From a virus (taxonomy: Duplodnaviria; Heunggongvirae; Uroviricota; Caudoviricetes), in the IMG/VR virus record IMGVR_UViG_2698536647_000003, positions 1 to 8,752 of that record: DNA of 8,752 bases. One strand, written 5' to 3'. How positions within the stretch are numbered: the first letter of the stretch is position 1; every line of letters begins with the position of its first letter. Positions 1 through 8,566 of the stretch are shown here, piece after piece. Position numbers and translations under genes: made by a program. The notes under the pieces are model-generated. The model had not been told where the DNA came from. It was given only the letters and a program-made list of their open reading frames with translations, and searched no databases.

Positions 1-804
1 CTGCGCCCACGGCACTGATGATTTTGGTGTTTGAGGGTCAGTGGTTGTTAGAAAACGGCTGAATACCGCATTACCGTAAGTAATCCACAGCTGCGCAATT
101 CGATGCCCGGTGTAGGAACTCTGAAACCCACAGCCATACGAAGGAGCCCACAGAGTATTGCCATCAGCATCACTGATGAAGGATGAACTGGCATCTGTGG
201 GCTTATTTTGGAGAACAGCACCAACCCCAAAAGCTCCCACCTGCATAACATTCCCTGCCGCAGTTCCGACATCCTTTGTCGCACTACTTCCTAAACCGAG
301 GTTTGTGCGAACGTCTGCTGCGTTCGTTGCCCCGGTCCCGCCCTGCGCAATAGAAAGCGCAGTAGTGAGTCCTTTCAGCTCCGTGATATCGCTGTTTGCC
401 CCCTTTCTGGCAAGTGCACCAATGCCCGGAATATTCACGGAAGCTCCGTTGATGGTAACGGTGATAGTTTGGTTTGCTGAGGTGGTGGCGAACGTCTCCC
501 ATGCGCCGATATTCTCGTCATACTCTTTGATGAGCTGAGACATGGCCTGCGCCAGGCCGTCGACTGAGATATTGTCTGACACAAGGATTCCATACTTCTG
601 GCCGCTCAGCGCCGGGGAAGCAACTGGCGTAACCGTCAAAGACGTGGCGCTGTTCACGGATGAAATCTGGAACAGCTGCACCGGGTTAGACATCACGATA
701 ATTGTCTGCCCAGCGCGAACCTGGCTGGCGGGAGCTGTCCAGTTTGTGCCGGAGCCGGTTGCGGTATTTCCGTTAATAGAGATAGTTCCTGTGCTATAAA
801 TCAT
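1..804 (-). CDS. Tail fibre protein, N-terminal 268 codons (partial; 3' end lies beyond the window start)
   Basis: Hand translation of the minus strand from ATG 804..802 is open for 268 codons to position 1 (MIYSTGTISINGNTATGSGTNW...), which explains why this frame is absent from the ATG-to-stop ORF track. TAGGAG sits 5 nt upstream of the ATG (811..816 on the minus strand). The translation contains LSIAQGGTGATNAADVRTNLGLG, a motif I recognise as recurrent in phage tail fibres. Position is immediately distal to J. Confidence 0.7.
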   Translation of the reverse strand, partial: MIYSTGTISINGNTATGSGTNWTAPASQVRAGQTIIVMSNPVQLFQISSVNSATSLTVTPVASPALSGQKYGILVSDNISVDGLAQAMSQLIKEYDENIGAWETFATTSANQTITVTINGASVNIPGIGALARKGANSDITELKGLTTALSIAQGGTGATNAADVRTNLGLGSSATKDVGTAAGNVMQVGAFGVGAVLQNKPTDASSSFISDADGNTLWAPSYGCGFQSSYTGHRIAQLWITYGNAVFSRFLTTTDPQTPKSSVPWAQ

Positions 805-881: not shown

Positions 882-1228
882 TTAATACATGTTGGGCAAC
901 GCCAGTGTTGGCATAGCTATAGTTGTATCAAATGCCATTGACCACCCACCCAAATAATAATTGCCGACTACTTTATTCCTTTCTGCTCTGACATTCCCAC
1001 CTGTCATTACAATTCCTTTATACCTAATATTTCCGTAACCACCAACGTGTCGACAGTTAGCCCCGGTATAAACAATCTGGCAAAATTCATCACCAATATT
1101 CAGGTTCGCATTGGCGATATTTATTGTCCCATCAAAAATGAATGGCTTCGTGCAAGTAAGAAGACGTTTGCGTTGACGATTGGTTTATTCAATCCATCAA
1201 CCAAAATACCATGTAAACGAATTGCCAT
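882..1228 (-). pseudogene. Possible frameshifted remnant of a side-tail-fibre (Stf-like) N-terminus
   Basis: Minus-strand ATG at 1228 gives MAIRLHGILVDGLNKPIVNANVFLLARSHSFLMGQ then a stop at 1121..1123. Its first ~27 residues resemble the lambda Stf N-terminus as I recall it (MAVKISGVLKDGTGKPVQNCTIQLKARR). A second frame is open from 1130 to 882 (82 codons). AT-rich, no convincing intact gene. Confidence 0.25.
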
Positions 1229-1309
1229 AACATTTCCCACTTTATTTTACTTACTCAACACAACAAGTATATTAAAATTGAACCTTGTCAACAACACAAA
1301 GGAGTCCCA

Positions 1310-1543
1310 ATGAAACTCGCTCTAATTATGCTGCCATTATGTCTGTCCCTCACTGCATGTGGTAATGGTTTAAATACCGGTAAACCAAATTCCGGTGTCA
1401 TTCCAAAACCTTTGGATCGAGATGGTAACGGTTCTTTAATTTATGATACCGAAAACCTTCCAATGACGGGGCAGTGGTGTCACGAGATTGATCACGAATA
1501 CCGACGAATCGGTAGCCCTTCTAACTGTGTTATTGACTACTAA
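1310..1543 (+). CDS. Small predicted outer-membrane lipoprotein (77 aa), moron convergent with J
   Basis: ORF-track ORF with AAGGAG at 1299..1304, 5 nt before the ATG. N-terminus MKLALIMLPLCLSLTAC has a charged n-region, hydrophobic core and lipobox L-T-A-C (Gly at +2). AT-rich relative to flanking tail genes. A perfect hairpin terminator begins 2 nt after the stop. Confidence 0.6.
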   Translation: MKLALIMLPLCLSLTACGNGLNTGKPNSGVIPKPLDRDGNGSLIYDTENLPMTGQWCHEIDHEYRRIGSPSNCVIDY

Positions 1544-1544
1544 A

Positions 1545-1572
1545 TATTAACCCCTCAAAAGAGGGGTTAATA
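1545..1572. terminator. Bidirectional intrinsic terminator between the convergent lipoprotein gene and J
   Basis: Perfect 12-bp inverted repeat TATTAACCCCTC / GAGGGGTTAATA with a 4-nt AAAA loop. It is followed by TTTT (1573..1576) on the plus strand and flanked by A/T on the minus strand. It lies between the plus-strand stop (1541..1543) and the J stop (1575..1577). Confidence 0.65.
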
Positions 1573-1574
1573 TT

Positions 1575-4500
1575 TTAACCTGTGAATGAACCAGATCCGT
1601 GTGATACTATGACAGTAGGCGAATAAATGGACGCGCCCCTGTTATTTTGAGCGGACACTTTAATACGCACTGTTACGTTTGGACCTGTTACAACCGCAGA
1701 ATGCATGATAAGTCTCTCCATGTCTTGTACGGATGAACCACTCTCATTGCCGTTAATATTGATTAGTCCTGCACCATTACCTTTAACGTTTGCTATAACA
1801 CAGACGTGTCTTGCGTGCCCAGAACTGGATGAATCCGTATAAGTTATTACCTTTTCTAAAAGGCCGTCACTAGACCGACTAACGTCAGTTCCGGTGTGCA
1901 TATTTGCAATGTCCCCGATAAAACTTTGGGCTTCCACAGTCCCTTTGAATTTACCGCTTGTTGCTTGTATCTCACCAGTAAATCTACCGCCACTAGCATA
2001 TACTACACCTCTGACGGTCACATTGTTGAATTCAGCATCTCCAGCTTTATTCAACTTCCAACCAGCAGAACCAGCTGCATAGTTGTTGGACTGGATATAG
2101 TTACCGATTTTTGCGTTCTCAATGGTGCCGTCCTGGATGAAGCTGGCCCGGATGAATGTCTGTCCATTCTGGATCACAAACGGCAAAGCCACGCTATTTC
2201 CGGCTGCCGTGGTGACGGCGAAGCGATCAGCCAGGAAGATAACCTGCGACTGCATGCCGGATGGCGTATTCTCCACGCCGATACCCATCCCCGCGGCGTA
2301 ATACTGCCCGTTGCTGGAGACACCAACTTTGATGTTGTACATCGCGCTGAGGTCGCCGTTTACGTTCGCTATAGCCTGAGCGTTGGTTGTGATGGCTGAG
2401 GTATGCCCGTTCACCGTCGCCGTGATGCTGTTTACCTGCGTGGCCATAGCCTGCTGGTAATCGGAGAACGTCTGGTTCAGGCTGTTGATGGATGCCTTGT
2501 TGCCGTTAACGTCCGTCTGCAGGCTCAGCAGCGAGCGCGCCGTTGCCTCCCTGTCGTTGACAATCACCTCATCAATACGGTCCAGATTCGCGCTGTTGCC
2601 GGCGACCGATGCAGAAAGGGTTTTACGCGTGGCCACCTGAGCGAGGTTGGCCTGGATTATCGCAATTGCAGAGTTCTTCACCCCGCCCGTCATGCCGTCC
2701 ATAGAAACGCTGATGTTGTCGATTCGCTGGCCCAGGGCGGTATCAGCCGTCGCAACGGTCTGCTCAAGCTGACTGAGTGAAGACGAAACATTCCCGACCG
2801 TGCTGGAAAGCTCATTAACGCTGGTCTGAACCTTCCCTACGTCCTGGGCATTTTTGGCGATATCTTTCGCTTGCTGCTCCAGTTCGTCGTTAGCCTGTTT
2901 GATATCGTTAGCCATGCCAGCAATTTTTTCATTGCTGTCCACAGCGTTCTCGATCAGGTCTTTGAACGTATCGGAGCCTTTCATGTCCTCCAGGATCACA
3001 TCTGTGATGTCGGAAACATCGATGCTGGCCTGTCCTCGCACCCATTCTGTGTACCCTGATTCGTTGCCGCTGCGGTCCACCAGCTGAGCGCGGTACCAGA
3101 AAATCTGCCCAGCCTTGAGGCCCATCTGCTGATATTTGCGCTGCGGATAAGGCACATCGGCCAGCAGCATCGCATCGTCCTCGGTTCCGGTCAGGCTGTA
3201 CTGAATTTCCGTCTTCAGCGTGTCGTCGGTATTCGCCGGGAATCCCCAGTTCAGCTCGATGCCGAAAACCACATTTTCAGAAGCGATGAAGCCAACCGGC
3301 TTCGGTGGATTGCCCACTTTACCCGTCAGCGTTTTCTCTTCTGAATAGCCCCATCCGGATGAAATTTCAGCGGCGTTGATGGCACGCACGCGCACCAGGT
3401 ATCGTCCCGCATAAATGCCCGGAACATCGAACGATGTGGTGGAGCTGCGCGGCACGTTAACCCAGTTCCCGTCGTTGCGGCGCCATTGTGCTTCATAGGC
3501 GATAGCGTTCTGCGCCTGGTACCAGCTCACGCGCATTGTTTCGACGCTGATATTTTGCTGAACCACGGAAAACGAGCTGATCACGATATTCGCAGGCGGC
3601 GACTGGTTGCCCGGCGGGATCACGCTCACCGGCCGTTGGTCAATGATGGCTCCGGTATCGATACGGGCATATTTATCCGGGTCGTGCCATGCGCCGGTAA
3701 TCGAGAAAGTGCCATCATTGTTATCGGAAACGCTGACAACTCGATACTGCTGCGCGTAGAGCTCGTCAGATTCAACCACCCAAACAGCTTCGGCCTGTGG
3801 CGTCTCACTGTATGCCGTGGTGACTGTGACTGATTCCCCGTTCACGGCCTGAATGGTCCTGCTCTGCGACGCTCCGGAGGGAAGGTTGAGAATAAGGCGA
3901 TCACCTGGTGCTGCATCAGCTACGCGGTCAAGTTTGATAACGCGACCGTTAACGGCGCTGATGCGGCCGCCCATAACCTTTCCGGAAAGCAGCTCGTCTG
4001 CCACGGCGATGATGTAGCCAGGCTGCGGAATGTTTCCGTCCAGCCCGACATCAAACGAAACAACGCGATCCTTGTTGTTGGTGAGAATGCCCCAGCGCCC
4101 CTTTCGGTTCGCTTCTGACTGCCTGGTGCAGCCGATGGCTGTCATTTCCAGCTGATTGAAGCCGTATCGCGCTACCAGCGCCTGCTCAAATACCGGCTCC
4201 ATCGCGTCGGCATAAGCGTTACCCGGGTCTGACCATGAAACCAGCGCTGTGGTGTAGCGGGTTTTCGTGGTGCTGCTTGAATAGGTGAAGCGACCGCCAA
4301 CAACGTTGGCGCGCGTGTAGCTGTAATCAACATCTCGGGGCATATCGGCCAGAGCAACGATCTGATCGCCTCCCCAGTACGTCATGCCACGGAATATGGC
4401 CGCAAAATCACGCAGGACTGTATAAGCGTCGTTTCGGTCCTGGATGTACACGTTGCAGGTATAACGCGGTTCGGTACCGTTGCCCCCTTTGCCGTCTGGT

Positions 4501-5465
4501 ACCATCTGATCACAATACTGGGCAACCTGATAAAGCGTCCATTTATCAATATTCGCAGCGGTCAAACGGTGCCCGAGGCCGAACCGGTCAGAAACAACCA
4601 GATCGTAAAAAATCCACGCAGGGTTATCCGTCCATGCCCACTTAAACGCACCGGTCCATGTACCGCTATAAGTGCGGGTTTCAGGGTCGTAGGTATCTGG
4701 AACGCGGATAACACGGCCGCGGGGCTCGCAGGAGATCTGCGGGATAGAGCCGTTAAACTGACTTGAATCGAATTCGATGTAGAGTAGCGCTGTGTTTGGA
4801 TATCGTAACTTGGCGTCAATCACCTCGGTGAAGCTCTGCAGCGTCATCGTGTCGCCGATCTTCGCGCTGTTGGCATCAGAGGTAATCTTACGCAGACGTA
4901 TTGTCCAGGTGCTGCCAGCTTGCGGTAAATCGATACGGTGGCTGCGCTCATAACCAGACGTCGTTTTGCCGGTCACGCTGGTATTGAGTACCGTCTGCCA
5001 TGTGCCGCCGTCCGTCTGCAGGTCAATCGCATAATTGACCGAGTAACCCACCAGATCTCCGTCGTCTTCCTGTTTGAAAAGCGAGGGCCATTTCAGACGC
5101 AGACGAACTGCTGAAAGCTGCGTATTGGTAAACGTGCGCGTCCAGGCTGTAGCGCTTGATACCTCAGTTCCCACGCTGATTTCGTTTTCGGTACCGGGAA
5201 TACCCTGAATATATTTTTGAGCCTGCGTCCCCGCGCGAAACTCCCACGTCACGCCGCTGAAGTTTTGGGAACCGTCGGCATTCTCCAGCGCCGTTCCGTC
5301 CAGGTAGATATCTTTGCCGGTTAGCTGCCCTGCGAACTCCCCTTCGCCAAGCGCAACGAGGATTTTTGCCTTCGCTACAGATTGCAGATCATCAGGCTGT
5401 TCGGTAGGAGTTCGTGAACTGGATTTGCCGCCTTTGCGCCCCTTTAATACTTTCTCTGTAGCCAT
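1575..5465 (-). CDS. J: Host specificity protein J (central tail fibre / tail tip), 1296 aa
   Basis: Single 3891-nt ORF. The N-terminal region (KGGKSSSRTPTEQPDDLQS...) and the segment YYAAGMGIGVENTPSGMQSQVIFLADRFAV... resemble lambda gpJ as I recall it. It sits after M-L-K-I in lambda order. Start ATG 5465 has only a weak GGA-type Shine-Dalgarno. Confidence 0.93.
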   Translation of the reverse strand: MATEKVLKGRKGGKSSSRTPTEQPDDLQSVAKAKILVALGEGEFAGQLTGKDIYLDGTALENADGSQNFSGVTWEFRAGTQAQKYIQGIPGTENEISVGTEVSSATAWTRTFTNTQLSAVRLRLKWPSLFKQEDDGDLVGYSVNYAIDLQTDGGTWQTVLNTSVTGKTTSGYERSHRIDLPQAGSTWTIRLRKITSDANSAKIGDTMTLQSFTEVIDAKLRYPNTALLYIEFDSSQFNGSIPQISCEPRGRVIRVPDTYDPETRTYSGTWTGAFKWAWTDNPAWIFYDLVVSDRFGLGHRLTAANIDKWTLYQVAQYCDQMVPDGKGGNGTEPRYTCNVYIQDRNDAYTVLRDFAAIFRGMTYWGGDQIVALADMPRDVDYSYTRANVVGGRFTYSSSTTKTRYTTALVSWSDPGNAYADAMEPVFEQALVARYGFNQLEMTAIGCTRQSEANRKGRWGILTNNKDRVVSFDVGLDGNIPQPGYIIAVADELLSGKVMGGRISAVNGRVIKLDRVADAAPGDRLILNLPSGASQSRTIQAVNGESVTVTTAYSETPQAEAVWVVESDELYAQQYRVVSVSDNNDGTFSITGAWHDPDKYARIDTGAIIDQRPVSVIPPGNQSPPANIVISSFSVVQQNISVETMRVSWYQAQNAIAYEAQWRRNDGNWVNVPRSSTTSFDVPGIYAGRYLVRVRAINAAEISSGWGYSEEKTLTGKVGNPPKPVGFIASENVVFGIELNWGFPANTDDTLKTEIQYSLTGTEDDAMLLADVPYPQRKYQQMGLKAGQIFWYRAQLVDRSGNESGYTEWVRGQASIDVSDITDVILEDMKGSDTFKDLIENAVDSNEKIAGMANDIKQANDELEQQAKDIAKNAQDVGKVQTSVNELSSTVGNVSSSLSQLEQTVATADTALGQRIDNISVSMDGMTGGVKNSAIAIIQANLAQVATRKTLSASVAGNSANLDRIDEVIVNDREATARSLLSLQTDVNGNKASINSLNQTFSDYQQAMATQVNSITATVNGHTSAITTNAQAIANVNGDLSAMYNIKVGVSSNGQYYAAGMGIGVENTPSGMQSQVIFLADRFAVTTAAGNSVALPFVIQNGQTFIRASFIQDGTIENAKIGNYIQSNNYAAGSAGWKLNKAGDAEFNNVTVRGVVYASGGRFTGEIQATSGKFKGTVEAQSFIGDIANMHTGTDVSRSSDGLLEKVITYTDSSSSGHARHVCVIANVKGNGAGLININGNESGSSVQDMERLIMHSAVVTGPNVTVRIKVSAQNNRGASIYSPTVIVSHGSGSFTG

Positions 5466-5631: not shown

Positions 5632-5847
5632 ATGATCGAAGAAAAGTTCGTGGATTTTAGATTTACTCTTGACGAAAATATTCCTAGAGAAATCGCTTTA
5701 GAAATTGTGGCTCTAAGACAAGTTACAATGGTATTAACAGCAGCATTGCCAGTAGATACAAGGCAACAAGTTATTGAAATCCTATCAAAGACAAACTCAC
5801 CACAAATTCAAGACATCGTCAAAAATATGAAGCTTATTGACGCCTAA
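5632..5847 (+). CDS. Hypothetical 71-aa protein in the I-J insertion (plus strand)
   Basis: ORF-track ORF with GGAG at 5621..5624, 7 nt before the ATG. AT-rich. Its 3' end overlaps the 3' end of the minus-strand 49-aa ORF by about 50 nt, so at most one of the two may be real. No recognisable motif. Confidence 0.35.
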   Translation: MIEEKFVDFRFTLDENIPREIALEIVALRQVTMVLTAALPVDTRQQVIEILSKTNSPQIQDIVKNMKLIDA

Positions 5848-5966: not shown

Positions 5967-6554
5967 TTACTGCTGATCTTCGACATATATCCCGGCAGAA
6001 ATAATCGCTCCGCCGATTCGACGCTTACCATAAAGCAGAGGCACTGGGTAGCCTTGCGCTGCAGTGTTGGTTACCCCGCCAAACGCATACGATGCACGGT
6101 TATCTGCGCTTTGTTTGCTGGCCAGCCCTGTAGCCTGAGGGGATAACATCTGAACTACCCCCCCCAGCGTTATGGACGCACCAGCAGCAAACATCATATT
6201 GCTGGCAGCTATACTCAGACCTGGCATCCAGATCGATGCAATCACTAATACTGCGCCCAGGATAGTTTGAATCAAACCGGCTTTTTTACTCCCGATGATT
6301 ACCGGAACAATGCGAATAACCTCGCCGGTAATCGGGAAGCCAAGGTCATCCACACCGATGTTTTTTTTACCCTTAAACACGGAGTATGTGAGCCCACGGC
6401 GTTGGCTGGAAATCATAAACTGCTCAAATCCAGGAATGGTTTTTGCGAGTGCAACGCCTGCTTCGCTTACGCGGGATATCAGACGGTAGTGAACTTTGCC
6501 AAACGTTTTTCCAAGAACACTGCCTAATTCAATTCGACTCATGACCTCTTGCAT
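5967..6554 (-). CDS. I: Tail assembly protein I (ubiquitin-like N-terminal domain, hydrophobic C-terminal region)
   Basis: Resembles lambda gpI as I recall it (e.g. ...GYPVPLLYG... near the C-terminus, Gly/Ala-rich hydrophobic stretch). I trimmed the ORF-track start (6641) to ATG 6554, which follows a GGGGGGA run by 4 nt and lies downstream of the 6570..6591 terminator. An in-frame ATG at 6542 is an alternative. Confidence 0.85.
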   Translation of the reverse strand: MQEVMSRIELGSVLGKTFGKVHYRLISRVSEAGVALAKTIPGFEQFMISSQRRGLTYSVFKGKKNIGVDDLGFPITGEVIRIVPVIIGSKKAGLIQTILGAVLVIASIWMPGLSIAASNMMFAAGASITLGGVVQMLSPQATGLASKQSADNRASYAFGGVTNTAAQGYPVPLLYGKRRIGGAIISAGIYVEDQQ

Positions 6555-6569
6555 ATAATCCCCCCACGT

Positions 6570-6591
6570 AAAAAAACCGCCGAAGCGGTTT
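6570..6591 (-). terminator. Intrinsic terminator on the minus strand after the K-I lipoprotein gene
   Basis: Minus-strand RNA reads AAACCGC-UUCG-GCGGUUU followed by a U-run (plus 6570..6576 is A7). Lies between the lipoprotein stop (6616) and the I start (6554). Confidence 0.65.
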
Positions 6592-6615
6592 AATTTGGTT
6601 GATTTATTTAGGTGT

Positions 6616-7011
6616 TTATTTATTAAAATGTTTCTTTTCAATGCTCATTGCTTGATTAAAGAAATTTGTAGCATTAATTACCGCCCTTTCACAATCCTTC
6701 TGCCCATAATGTCGATGGCATTGGAATTCAGCATTTATTGCCGTATCGCCGGACTGTTTAACCTTAGATGCCCGTCCTGCAAGTTGCCTTGTATCAATAG
6801 GTGGGAATGTTGTTATAAATGTATCGTTAGCTGATTCTACTCTCATTTTTGTTGCAAACTCCAAATGCTGAGGAACCTTCGACCAAAGATAACTACATTC
6901 AGCCTCTGATGAACATGTGACAGGCTTAGTATCTAATACCGGCATTGGCCTATTATCAGCACATCCAGCGGTGGCAAGTACCACAAGACCAGAGAACAAT
7001 ATTTTTTTCAC
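6616..7011 (-). CDS. Cys-rich predicted outer-membrane lipoprotein (131 aa), moron between K and I
   Basis: ORF-track ORF starting at GTG 7011..7009 (no in-frame ATG nearby), with GGGAAG 7 nt upstream. N-terminus MKKILFSGLVVLATAGC fits a lipoprotein signal with Cys+1 and Ala at +2. The mature part has 4 further Cys. AT-rich; own terminator downstream. No homolog recognised. Confidence 0.6.
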   Translation of the reverse strand: MKKILFSGLVVLATAGCADNRPMPVLDTKPVTCSSEAECSYLWSKVPQHLEFATKMRVESANDTFITTFPPIDTRQLAGRASKVKQSGDTAINAEFQCHRHYGQKDCERAVINATNFFNQAMSIEKKHFNK

Positions 7012-7098: not shown

Positions 7099-7809
7099 TT
7101 AACAAAATACTTTGTACCGAAGTACTTTCATTGTTCTTTCCTGCCAGTAGCCACCATATGGCACGCGCTGGCTAAGATGACCGTACAAATGATGCAGTAG
7201 CATATTGCCCTCAAGCAGGATCCCCGCGTGATTCCACTTATCGGCCTGGACCTGCATGATGATGAGGTCCCCTTCCTGAGGCGGGCCATCAAACTCCCTG
7301 AATCCGCACTCGTACCAGCACTCCTGATAGAAATTGTCCGGGTAGTCGTTTTCCCACCAGGGATAATCCACCCGGTAATCGTGGAGCTCGATACCGTGGG
7401 TCTGCCGGAAATAGCTCATTACCAGACCCCAGCAATCGAAGTGGCCAAGCACGAACGGACGCTCCAGCAATGGCAGCTCCCCGCGTGGCTGAATGGTACG
7501 TAAATCCCCCTCTGGCCAGCTCACAATATGCCAGGGCAGCAGCGTTGCATCACACTGTGCCTTATCCAGCTCGCTGGCCTGCGTCGTCGCATCAGGATGG
7601 CTGTGAACAATGGCCACCACCGTCCCCCAGTCTTCTGCCGCTGCGTAATCTTCGGGGGACAGGTGAAAATGTTCAGTCGGCTCTGCTGCGAGATTACGAC
7701 AGGGAAAATAGCGCTCAACCCGGCTTTTCTGTGCCACCACGCCGCAGCACTCGCGCGGATATTCCGCTGCAGCGTGTGCCATGATGGCATCAATGGTTTT
7801 CTGGCGCAT
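7099..7809 (-). CDS. K: Tail assembly / tail tip protein K (JAMM/MPN metalloprotease-like N-domain plus NlpC/P60-like C-domain)
   Basis: JAMM motif visible: E in PRECCGVV, then HSHPDATTQASELD, which fits H-x-H-x7-S-x2-D. NlpC/P60-like Cys in GHFDCWGLV and His in WNHAGILL. Start set at ATG 7809 (protein MRQKTIDAIM...) with AGGAG 5 nt upstream; the L stop TGA (7813..7811) is 1 nt before it. The ORF-track start at 7845 is probably an upstream non-ATG artefact. Confidence 0.9.
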   Translation of the reverse strand: MRQKTIDAIMAHAAAEYPRECCGVVAQKSRVERYFPCRNLAAEPTEHFHLSPEDYAAAEDWGTVVAIVHSHPDATTQASELDKAQCDATLLPWHIVSWPEGDLRTIQPRGELPLLERPFVLGHFDCWGLVMSYFRQTHGIELHDYRVDYPWWENDYPDNFYQECWYECGFREFDGPPQEGDLIIMQVQADKWNHAGILLEGNMLLHHLYGHLSQRVPYGGYWQERTMKVLRYKVFC

Positions 7810-7810
7810 A

Positions 7811-8566
7811 TCAACTCCTGATAAGAGATGTACCGGGGAAACCACCGAACGGCAGCTCGTTGCTGTATCCGTGCCGGAGCTTGCAGGCCGTCAGCGTGCC
7901 GTTGCATACATCCAGCGAGGGATCGTCAACCGGATTATTGTTTTTGTCGAAATAGCGCGTTCCGGCATAGTCGCAGCCGTCGCCGGTACGATATTTATTC
8001 CGGATGCACCAGGTACACAGGGAATGAAGCTGTCGCGTCGGGATCATTTGCCCCTGCAGGTCCATCGGGCTGGATAGTGTGAACTCAACAACTTCATTGG
8101 TTTCACTGCTCTTTGCATCGATGTAGAAAACCTTCAGCTTCTCCTGGGTCGGATCGGCTGTCGGATTGCCTCCGGTGAAGTTTCTCGCATCAAGATACTT
8201 ACCAAGGGTGTCATGTATCGTCACCTTCGCCTGCAGCATATCGTCGTAAGCCAGGCAAAGCGCGGTGATCGAACTGTCGAGGTTAGCAACCGAAAGTTTT
8301 GGCTGGGCACTACTTCCCGAGGTTGAAGCTTCGATCCCATCAATCTGGCATGGCCACGCTTTATACTCCTCACCCTGCCACCAGATAGATTTTGCTGGCA
8401 GTTTATTTTCATCACCGCCAGCAGCCTCAATCTCTTCCGGGGTATGCGCGATGTTATGTGCGTGGAAGCGGAGTACATCTGACATACCGAACGCTGTGCC
8501 ATCGACAGAAAAAAGCCGGACTTCATTGCCCGGCTCGAGTTTTTGATAATCAGCATTAAGACTCAT
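7811..8566 (-). CDS. L: Tail tip protein L (251 aa)
   Basis: Position between M and K. C-terminal Cys cluster (LCTWCIRNKYRTGDGCDYAG ... CNGTLTACKLRHG) resembles the conserved Cys pattern of lambda gpL as I recall it. The ATG at 8566..8564 overlaps the M stop in an ATGA arrangement. Confidence 0.9.
   Translation of the reverse strand: MSLNADYQKLEPGNEVRLFSVDGTAFGMSDVLRFHAHNIAHTPEEIEAAGGDENKLPAKSIWWQGEEYKAWPCQIDGIEASTSGSSAQPKLSVANLDSSITALCLAYDDMLQAKVTIHDTLGKYLDARNFTGGNPTADPTQEKLKVFYIDAKSSETNEVVEFTLSSPMDLQGQMIPTRQLHSLCTWCIRNKYRTGDGCDYAGTRYFDKNNNPVDDPSLDVCNGTLTACKLRHGYSNELPFGGFPGTSLIRS

Follow-up and report, generated by a model that had tools for sequence, protein, structure and literature searches.

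An HK97-type J protein with a long predicted coiled-coil shaft beside a candidate LamB-directed exclusion lipoprotein

The window, as we call the whole 8,752-nucleotide stretch of caudoviral DNA analysed here (IMG/VR record IMGVR_UViG_2698536647_000003), carries a gene for the tail tip or central fibre protein J (1575..5465, minus strand), an ORF of 1296 amino acids plus a stop codon. Its product is longer than the 1132-residue J of lambda and ends in a sequence that does not resemble the LamB-binding end of lambda J, which raises two questions: what does the additional length encode, and does the divergent end indicate another receptor? A first-pass annotation, made from the letters alone, had given the two lengths as 1296 and about 1130, correctly, and had proposed an expanded low-complexity segment, a different receptor specificity, and a match between that specificity and an adjacent candidate exclusion gene. 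We consider it highly probable that the window encodes an HK97-type J in which a trimeric coiled-coil shaft carries a LamB-binding tip domain, in a cassette with a LamB-directed exclusion lipoprotein.

J and its relatives

Direct alignment shows that the window J is 96.5% identical to the J protein of HK97 (gp24, NP_037717.1) over 1296 of 1296 residues, with 45 substitutions and no indels. Because 38 of these substitutions fall after residue 800 and only seven before it, their uneven spread suggests that the gene may be of mosaic origin; the shaft segment is 96.6% identical to that of phage Eeyore and 90% identical to that of HK97. The gene order is also that of a lambdoid tail module, with L (Phage_tail_L), K (JAB and NlpC/P60) and I upstream of J on the same strand, and J is flanked by I and stf as in HK97. 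Judged by sequence, the window J is essentially an allele of HK97 gp24 from an HK97-like prophage and thus an already known protein. It therefore carries little weight as a discovery: the sequence of HK97 J dates from 2000, and the solved structures of the lambda and F-pyocin proteins already account for its architecture.

The domain order is that of lambda gpJ (PDB 8iyk, 8xcj, 8xck), a member of the same family: hub, FNIII-1 and FNIII-2, alpha-helical shaft, beta-prism, and receptor-binding domain (domain names from PMC11101478). Residues 13–707 and 1037–1190 of the window protein align with lambda J. A Pfam search finds the families FNIII-A_GpJ, Phage-tail_3, and Phage_Tail_Tip, while against the NCBIfam model lambda_TipJ the protein reaches 531 bits, below the cut-off of 1950. 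Residues 1–813 (3027..5465, minus strand) comprise the hub domains and then two FNIII-type domains (about 612–705 and 712–813). Matches to PF24801 (E 2.5e-50) and PF13550 (E 5.6e-13) indicate that the hub and the J-specific FNIII-A domain are present; within this region there are Pfam matches at residues 92–218 and 344–505 and an FN3con match at 615–699. The window J aligns with lambda J 4–700 at E 9e-128, and its hub and FNIII region also aligns full-length with the F2-pyocin central fibre and with 9l9p. By homology, the tail tip would consist of three copies of J, whose N-terminal hub and FNIII domains would close the tail tube at its end.

Residues 1038–1186 (1908..2354, minus strand) form the central straight fibre, a beta-sheet prism corresponding to Pfam Phage_Tail_Tip (PF09327, residues 1024–1161, E 1.1e-49) and matching lambda J 858–1001. 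The J proteins of HK022, phi80, and mEp213 are co-linear with the window J, whole shaft included, up to approximately residue 1145 (window position ~2031) and diverge beyond it (the HK022 shaft is 97% identical), and this point marks the module junction. Unlike the window J, these proteins stop about 38 residues past the junction; downstream of their genes, where these phages have receptor-binding genes, come two small membrane-protein genes and cor. Antisense ORFs also occur within J on the plus strand, for example at 1896..2399 and 2403..2780, where they face a coding frame that is conserved in many phages.

The helical shaft

The segment singled out by the first-pass annotation begins with DVSDITDVILEDMKG at residue 816 (window position 3020) and runs to just before GQYYAAGMGIG at residue 1053 (2309). 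The estimate of about 240 residues for 2309..3020 is borne out by the measured 237. Using domain boundaries drawn from our alignments and from PMC11101478 and PMC13455828, we assign residues 816–1037 (2355..3020, minus strand) to an extended alpha-helical shaft. Its start maps to approximately residue 808 of lambda J and 818–819 of the F2-pyocin fibre. Compared with lambda, the window protein has 815 versus 807 residues before the shaft, 222 versus 50 in the shaft, 149 versus 140 in the prism, and 110 versus 135 in the receptor-binding domain. The shaft supplies +172 residues where the net difference is +164, bearing out the suggestion that this segment accounts for most of the extra length.

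Could the segment instead lack a defined fold, as a disordered linker of skewed composition or the artefact of a recent expansion? Its composition is indeed biased: Ala, Ser, Thr, Asn, and Gln account for 48.1% of its residues but for 35.8% of those elsewhere in J (Fisher p = 5e-4), as the first reading had noticed; the Pfam search finds no domain above threshold in it; and the entropy of 40-residue windows is 3.51 bits against 3.76 elsewhere. This last difference is only slight, however, and the BLAST low-complexity filter leaves the segment unmasked. Pro, Trp, and Cys are absent (no Pro occurs from 816 to 1052), and autocorrelation computed directly on the segment peaks at lags of 7 and 14 (z 4.1–4.5), a heptad periodicity, as well as at lags of 32 (z 5.0–5.7) and 64 (z 3.7). 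No significant signal emerges from a Fourier test for a single global period of 3.5 residues (p = 0.13), since the phase is shifted wherever one unit meets the next. Those units are five degenerate stretches of 32 residues (residues 890–1049; 2319..2798, minus strand), of which four open with V-(x)-G-N/H (at 890, 954, 986, and 1018) and the second opens at 922, at a Gly-rich break. They are visible at the protein level only; no DNA tandem repeats were found in 2200..3100. Across many phages the shaft is conserved at 54–97% identity with indels in whole units only: tblastn matches to it are 615, 711, or 807 nt long, the J of mEp213 contains an exact 32-residue duplication of one unit, and that of phi80 has a net 32-residue deletion. 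Searches with the shaft give weak matches to coiled-coil and SMC families, and the segment aligns with a solved coiled coil. Taken with the periodicity, the lack of proline, and the conservation, this makes a linker or artefact highly improbable.

That solved structure is the central fibre of the F2 pyocin (PDB 25vf, 25vj, 26ci), the best structural match to J, in which a shaft with a glycine kink is followed by a prism and the chain ends soon afterwards, without the HK97-type receptor-binding domain of the window protein. With phmmer, 25vf aligns to residues 5–1143 of the full-length J at E 0. Residues 816–1296 alone reach E 3e-31, with 886–1143 aligned to pyocin residues 916–1185 and lower confidence before 960. 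Since PMC13455828 describes the corresponding part of the pyocin as an extended coiled coil of three strands, the same is predicted for residues 816–1037, the trimeric state being taken from the lambda and F2-pyocin structures (PMC11101478, PMC13455828) and the heptads being grouped into the 32-residue units. Of the two descriptions in the first-pass annotation, coiled coil thus stands, and low complexity is an overstatement in view of the entropy, the filter result, and the 7- and 32-residue periods. Similarly, the segment is expanded relative to lambda, but the excess of about 170 residues over the lambda shaft is normal for the HK97/HK022/phi80 group and the F-type pyocins, and its length is standard for the J proteins of HK97 and HK022. 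The length of the shaft would determine how far the central fibre reaches, and it evolves through gain or loss of 32-residue units. By analogy with lambda, binding at the tip may send a signal through the prism and shaft, upon which the tube would open.

An alternative is that the long shaft serves mainly to dock side tail fibres in the manner of the F2 pyocin, rather than mainly as a spacer or signal rod. In the pyocin, three side-fibre trimers bind at the G955 kink in the coiled coil (PMC13455828). A glycine-rich break also interrupts the window shaft, SMDGMTGG at residues 921–928 (2682..2705, minus strand; Gly 924, 927, and 928), which phmmer places opposite pyocin residues ~954–958 (DDGNG), beside that kink, although the register of the alignment is approximate and uncertain there. 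The 5′ part of stf, cut by the contig end (1..804, minus strand), encodes a protein whose first 180 residues are 82% identical to HK97 Stf. Lambda Stf has an N-terminal collar domain that in Ur-lambda contacts the tube and gpM; the window Stf shows no similarity to this domain and must therefore attach by other means. However, its N-terminus matches none of the F2-pyocin chains in sequence and resembles instead the N-terminal region of Klebsiella phage depolymerases and the "putative tail fiber" 7z47. Moreover, the FhuA-type phages HK022 and phi80 have the same shaft yet no stf annotated in the stretch examined after J. Docking as the main function is therefore unlikely, and we favor a shaft that acts chiefly as spacer and signal rod.

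The C-terminal domain and its receptor

The remaining residues, 1187–1296 (1578..1907, minus strand), constitute an HK97-type receptor-binding domain, predicted to be a small, compact beta-sandwich. The first-pass annotation had described the last 100 to 175 residues as unlike lambda. Over residues 1122–1296 (1575..2102), the alignment to lambda J 858–1001 extends to ~1190, so the description applies to the last ~106–110 residues, which have no counterpart, and not to those before them. BLASTP of the J C-terminus against lambda J finds no match past the prism. In lambda gpJ the receptor-binding domain is PF12421 (DUF3672), which is carried by all 44 homologues of that domain but has no match in the window J at E <= 0.1. 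Likewise, hhalign comparison of a 12-sequence HK97-type profile with a 44-sequence lambda-type profile (lambda J 998–1132) gives a probability of 0.1–0.2%, and a PHROG search with the HK97-type domain returns no match. The window domain is thus of another type, with no sequence or profile homology to that of lambda detected.

An AlphaFold2 model of the domain (pLDDT 93.7) is a beta-sandwich of 10 strands; alignments for structure prediction were shallow, a search of a large protein collection with the C-terminal 151 residues having yielded nine fragments. Alone, the modeled domain has TM-scores of 0.54 to 8xcj and 0.57 to 9wcb, lambda-type domains whose fold is an Ig-like beta-sandwich at the fibre tip; they rank 42 and 15 among generic beta-sandwiches (E ~2e-2), to which the model is just as similar. 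The lambda chains (8xcj, 8xck) come out on top only if the model keeps the prism stub that both proteins share (E 2e-4).

The same type of C-terminus is found at 35–92% identity in HK97, in the Seuratviruses Bas21–24, and in the mEpimmI phages mEp010, mEp013, mEp044, and mEp554. Over residues 1146–1296 (151 residues) the window protein is 92.7% identical to phage 9g, 92.1% to HK97, 80.8% to Bas22, 58–69% to the mEpimmI LamB phages, and 35–36% to Bas21, Bas23, and Bas24. HK97 adsorbs to LamB (PMC6832061; bioRxiv 10.1101/2025.12.01.691526); Bas21–24 are all typed as LamB-dependent, with the lamB dependence of Bas22 complemented (PMC8594841 main text, S5 Table); and mEp010, mEp013, mEp044, and mEp554 fail to infect a lamB knockout (PMC11893012). 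Because the typed phages with this C-terminal type need LamB, this maltoporin is also the most likely receptor for the window domain, as it is for HK97. The LamB of the contig's own host (GCA_001268505.1) may differ. For annotation, the lesson is that a J C-terminus unlike that of lambda need not mean that the receptor differs. LamB use goes with two or more domain types unrelated in sequence, and receptor predictions should therefore be based on typed relatives rather than on similarity to lambda.

The convergent lipoprotein gene

Convergent with J lies a gene for a 77-residue lipoprotein (1310..1543, plus strand), a homologue of Lpp010 and a candidate for LamB-directed superinfection exclusion. 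The protein has a signal peptide with the lipobox LTAC, matches phrog_12984 ("lipoprotein") at E 1e-56, and is 51% identical to mEp010 gp116, that is, Lpp010 (E 1.7e-30). Its identity is 90% to 9g gp69, 83% to Bas22_0021, and 93.5–96% to its counterparts in Bas21, Bas23, and Bas24. Lpp010 is a tested exclusion protein acting on LamB-dependent phages including lambda, although mEp013 is not excluded (PMC11893012). We also considered homology to Cor, which inactivates FhuA in HK022, N15, and phi80 lysogens (PMC3594210), and rejected it since BLASTP against HK022 and phi80 Cor gives no alignment at E <= 100.

Point mutations, few in number, can give lambda J the use of OmpF, and receptor switches through few changes are known for J-type domains. 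With this in mind, the divergent C-terminal domain might recognize an outer-membrane receptor other than LamB, which the adjacent lipoprotein would block; such a reading would accommodate both the dissimilarity to the LamB-binding PF12421 domain of lambda and the eleven substitutions relative to HK97 within the last 106 residues. On the other hand, every typed phage with this C-terminal type, this lipoprotein, or both requires LamB, and LamB use is retained even at 35–69% identity, well below the 92% shared by the window allele and HK97. The lipoprotein, for its part, is unlike the FhuA-directed Cor and homologous to a protein that excludes lambda itself. A receptor other than LamB is therefore improbable. 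The 96.5% overall identity to the J of a LamB-using phage argues, together with the typed carriers, against the different specificity proposed at first. The accompanying idea that the C-terminus is matched to its neighbor fares better, in that the linkage is conserved and the neighbor is an Lpp010 homologue, but the match points to LamB and not to a new receptor.

Relative to HK97, which lacks a lipoprotein gene after J, the gene lies in a low-GC insert of 688 bp (886..1573; GC 0.38–0.39) that stands in for about 125 bp of HK97 DNA; the HK97 match stops at the J stop codon and resumes at 885. Phage 9g DNA matches window positions 1142–2141, spanning the end of J and the lipoprotein gene, at 89% identity. 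A convergent lipoprotein gene is found directly 3′ of J in 9g, Bas22, and mEp010 as in the window. The lipoprotein occurs in 44 phage records, directly downstream of a matching J end wherever a record is listed in both searches. In 9g (gp68/gp69), Bas21–24, and the mEpimmI phages (mEp010 J and Lpp010), the receptor-binding type is 35–93% identical and the lipoprotein 51–96% identical to that of the window, whereas the remainder of J derives from different lineages and differs in length (987, 1029, and ~1707 residues). Those phages are virulent or non-lambdoid, while in the window the cassette belongs to a lambdoid tail module of HK97 type. These observations, made directly on gene order and sequence, show that the lipoprotein gene and the receptor-binding end of J it faces are one exchangeable cassette, common to virulent Queuovirinae and temperate mEpimmI phages.

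We give roughly even odds to a broader proposal: that a self-contained cassette for LamB recognition and exclusion moves among unrelated lineages, namely lambdoid HK97-like prophages, virulent Queuovirinae, and mEpimmI phages, and that its domain is an independent solution to LamB binding and not a diverged lambda domain. If so, the contig would represent a lambdoid prophage whose lipoprotein can exclude lambda as well as HK97, a kind of exclusion that the authors of the mEpimmI study describe as not reported for lambdoid phages (PMC11893012). By analogy with Lpp010, we predict that a lysogen of this HK97-like prophage, with its Lpp010-type lipoprotein beside J, would be shielded against phages that depend on LamB. 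HK97, which is without the gene, and the window prophage, which has it, form a natural pair for testing the lipoprotein.

J and the lipoprotein gene, whose stop codons face each other, are separated by a short hairpin and a T-rich tract after it (1551..1564, minus strand). This stretch matches a terminator-like consensus, and a stem-loop or terminator is annotated at the equivalent place in 9g and mEp010, although the evidence for a terminator here is weak.

Identity and domain layout of the J protein

The tail tip protein J (1575..5465, minus strand; 1296 aa) is already known as the J protein of HK97. Among 50,697 phage records searched with tblastn, the best match is HK97 J (gp24), 96.5% identical with 100% of the length covered, and a direct comparison of the two gives 45 substitutions and no indels, with 38 of the 45 substitutions after residue 800 and 11 within the last 106 residues. 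About 20 further lambdoid phages (HK022, HK106, HK75, the mEpX1 group, and others) are 88–98% identical to J, but only up to residue ~1145. A recombination junction lies there in the beta-prism (window ~2031), after AGSAGWKL(N/D)K(A/G)G. Past it, LamB-type J proteins carry a fused receptor-binding domain, whereas those of HK022, phi80, and mEp213 extend for only another ~38 residues, with two genes for small membrane proteins and cor lying downstream. In alignment, HK022 J is co-linear with the window J across the entire central segment before its unrelated ~38-residue tail.

Pfam places FNIII-A_GpJ at J residues 92–218, Phage-tail_3 at 344–505, and Phage_Tail_Tip at 1024–1161. A PDB sequence search matches the F2-pyocin central fibre 25vf (1204 aa; E 0) to residues 5–1143 and also recovers 9l9p (1172 aa) and 23gd (1148 aa); lambda J (1132 aa) aligns only with residues 13–707 and 1037–1190, the latter against lambda 858–1001. 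Lambda J consists, in order, of hub domains, FNIII-1/2, an alpha-helical shaft, a beta-prism straight fibre, and a receptor-binding domain (PMC11101478); the shaft starts at ~808 in lambda and ~819 in F2-pyocin (PMC13455828). With boundaries drawn from these published ones, the window J divides into a pre-shaft region (1–815; 815 aa versus 807 aa in lambda), a shaft (816–1037; 222 versus 50 aa), a prism (1038–1186; 149 versus 140 aa), and a receptor-binding domain (1187–1296; 110 versus 135 aa). Of the net +164 residues, the shaft thus contributes +172, confirming the first-pass annotation, which had ascribed most of the extra length to a central segment. The motifs it quoted are also where it placed them, at residues 816–830 (window 2976..3020) and 1053–1063 (2277..2309).

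A shaft built of 32-residue units

This segment had been described as low-complexity and probably coiled coil. The coiled coil holds, but low complexity does not in the usual sense, as 40-aa window entropy is 3.51 bits versus 3.76 bits and the BLAST low-complexity filter leaves the segment unmasked. A/S/T/N/Q make up 48.1% of the segment but 35.8% of J outside it, an enrichment at p = 5e-4, and Pro, Trp, and Cys are absent. Against a background of 300 shuffles, the autocorrelation of substitution scores has maxima at lags 7 and 14 (z 4.1–4.5), at lag 32 (z 5.0–5.7) with satellites at 25 and 39 (z 3.2–4.3), and at lag 64 (z 3.7). Five degenerate 32-residue units, each equal to four heptads plus four residues, occupy J 890–1049 (window 2319..2798, minus strand), and four of the five open with V-(x)-G-N/H. 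Across the whole segment the 3.5-residue Fourier component is non-significant (p = 0.13); local 42-aa windows peak at 3.5–3.55. The pattern fits heptads whose phase is reset at every unit boundary, and residues 815–1035 weakly match SMC and other coiled-coil families.

Two relatives differ by exactly one unit: mEp213 J has an exact duplication of ATARSLLSLQTDVNGNKASINSLNQTFSDYQQ in the shaft, and phi80 J a net 32-residue deletion in another part of it. Fibre length thus evolves in unit steps; in tblastn, the matches span 807, 711, and 615 nt, in keeping with whole-unit differences, and no tandem repeat remains at the DNA level in the shaft-coding region. Because the shaft is shared with relatives and varies by whole units, it is the standard shaft of its own lineage and no expansion specific to the window. 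Among J proteins that share the C-terminal domain of the window J, length varies between 987 aa (Bas22) and ~1707 aa (mEp010). Enterobacter hormaechei is the source of many closely related shafts.

By homology with lambda, the hub and FNIII domains of a J trimer would close the tail tube, with the receptor-binding domains displayed at the tip of a shaft-plus-prism fibre. If HK97-type J works as lambda J does, LamB binding would spread the tips, twist the prism, flip the shaft, and open the tube. A longer shaft would give a longer fibre, whose reach may be under selection, as the variation of the shaft by whole units suggests. The shaft might have a second role, that of docking the side fibres, which the F2-pyocin shaft does: a glycine-rich break at J residues 921–928 lies near the aligned F2-pyocin kink, and the Stf of the window is without lambda's collar domain. 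We consider this role improbable, however, because the Stf N-terminus (window 1..804, minus strand) resembles depolymerase N-termini and no pyocin chain. With 82% identity it belongs to the HK97 type, and it has no relationship to the lambda collar domain; its residues 12–97 match the N-terminal part of depolymerases from Klebsiella phages (7lzj, 7vyv), and its residues 92–196 the repeats in a 'putative tail fiber' (7z47).

The C-terminal domain and its expected receptor

As the first-pass annotation had observed, the J C-terminus (receptor-binding domain, window 1578..1907) is unlike the LamB-binding C-terminus of lambda J, with no similarity past the shared prism by BLASTP, Pfam, or hhalign. 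The BLASTP alignment is confined to NVTVRG...IGDI; PF12421, present in 44 of 44 homologues of lambda's domain, is absent from the window J; and domain-only hhalign profiles, HK97-type versus lambda-type, give 0.1–0.2% probability. AlphaFold2 predicts a compact ten-strand beta-sandwich (pLDDT 93.7). With the prism stub attached, lambda 8xcj and 8xck rank first in Foldseek (E 2e-4); the domain alone best matches generic carbohydrate-binding and jelly-roll modules (E 2e-3 to 1e-2), below which lambda-type domains appear at TM 0.54–0.57 (ranks 42 and 15). Judged by predicted fold and Foldseek matches, both tips are small beta-sandwiches, a likeness that fits common ancestry and convergence alike.

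A different receptor specificity had been proposed from this divergence. Identity to the C-terminal 151 residues of J is 92.7% in 9g, 92.1% in HK97, 80.8% in KurtStettler (Bas22), 69% in mEp010, 58–59% in mEp013, mEp044, and mEp554, and 35–36% in Bas21, Bas23, Bas24, and other Seuratviruses. LamB is the adsorption receptor of HK97 (bioRxiv 10.1101/2025.12.01.691526, and a passage of PMC6832061 citing Dhillon 1980 and Cumby 2015) and the listed terminal receptor of Bas21–24, the lamB dependence of Bas22 having been complemented (PMC8594841); a lamB knockout is not infected by mEp010, mEp013, mEp044, or mEp554 (PMC11893012). Every phage with this module and a typed receptor thus uses LamB and none uses another, so the proposal is unsupported, and by analogy LamB is the expected receptor of the window J allele.

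A linked lipoprotein gene and the tail gene block

The suggestion that the C-terminus is matched to the adjacent exclusion candidate was a good one, with LamB as the predicted target. The candidate is a 77-aa lipoprotein precursor (1310..1543, plus strand, converging on J; lipobox LTAC; phrog_12984) that is 90% identical to 9g gp69, 83% to Bas22_0021, 93.5–96% to the Bas21, Bas23, and Bas24 homologues, and 51% (E 2e-30) to mEp010 gp116 (Lpp010). In 9g, Bas22, and mEp010 the gene directly follows J in the same orientation, and plasmid-expressed Lpp010 excluded mEp010, mEp044, mEp554, and lambda (PMC11893012). Homology to Lpp010, its exclusion of lambda, and the linked position point to LamB, and the lipoprotein of this HK97-like prophage is, by analogy, a candidate lambda-excluding protein. 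Considered as a homologue of Cor, the FhuA-directed exclusion protein of HK022 and phi80, it proved unrelated.

DNA of 9g matches window 1142–2141 at 89%, a stretch that takes in J from residue ~1109 to its terminus, the lipoprotein gene, and the region upstream of that gene. Similarity to HK97 DNA breaks off at the J stop codon and returns only at 885, so that window 886..1573 (688 bp, low-GC) stands in place of ~125 bp of HK97. The receptor-binding domain and lipoprotein gene therefore act as one exchangeable cassette. The lipoprotein is held in 44 phage records, HK97 not among them, and according to the mEpimmI authors no lambdoid-phage lipoprotein excluding lambda has been reported (PMC11893012). 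An Lpp010-type lipoprotein in an HK97-like lambdoid prophage is the sole, mildly new element here.

The window is the complete 8752-bp contig CXWW01000047.1 (assembly GCA_001268505.1), present in 4 samples and cutting genes at both ends. On its minus strand lie distal tail genes from a lambdoid prophage, namely the end of M, L (7811..8566), K (7099..7845 as mechanical ORF; JAB and NlpC/P60 domains), I (5967..6641), J, and the start of stf, the side tail fibre gene. The public record starts I and K further downstream than the mechanical ORFs do, giving proteins of 195 and 236 aa, the lengths annotated in HK97 and E. coli, in place of 224 aa (I, TTG start) and 248 aa (K, GTG start). The prophage most similar to the whole window, in the nearest complete E. 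coli genome, has only 91% DNA identity.

Small low-GC inserts separate the tail genes. The insert between K and I (GC ~0.40) holds a 131-aa ORF (6616..7011, minus strand) whose signal peptide (MKKILFSGLVVLATAGC...) resembles that of a lipoprotein. This ORF matches phrog_16082, of unknown function, and nothing in Pfam; HK022 has moron gp20 at this site, and HK97 a terminator. The I-J gap (GC 0.37) holds a 71-aa ORF opposite to the tail genes (5632..5847, plus strand; phrog_6806, unknown function), which the annotation of an E. coli prophage lists as hypothetical and which occupies the position of the gp22/gp23 morons in HK97 and in HK022.
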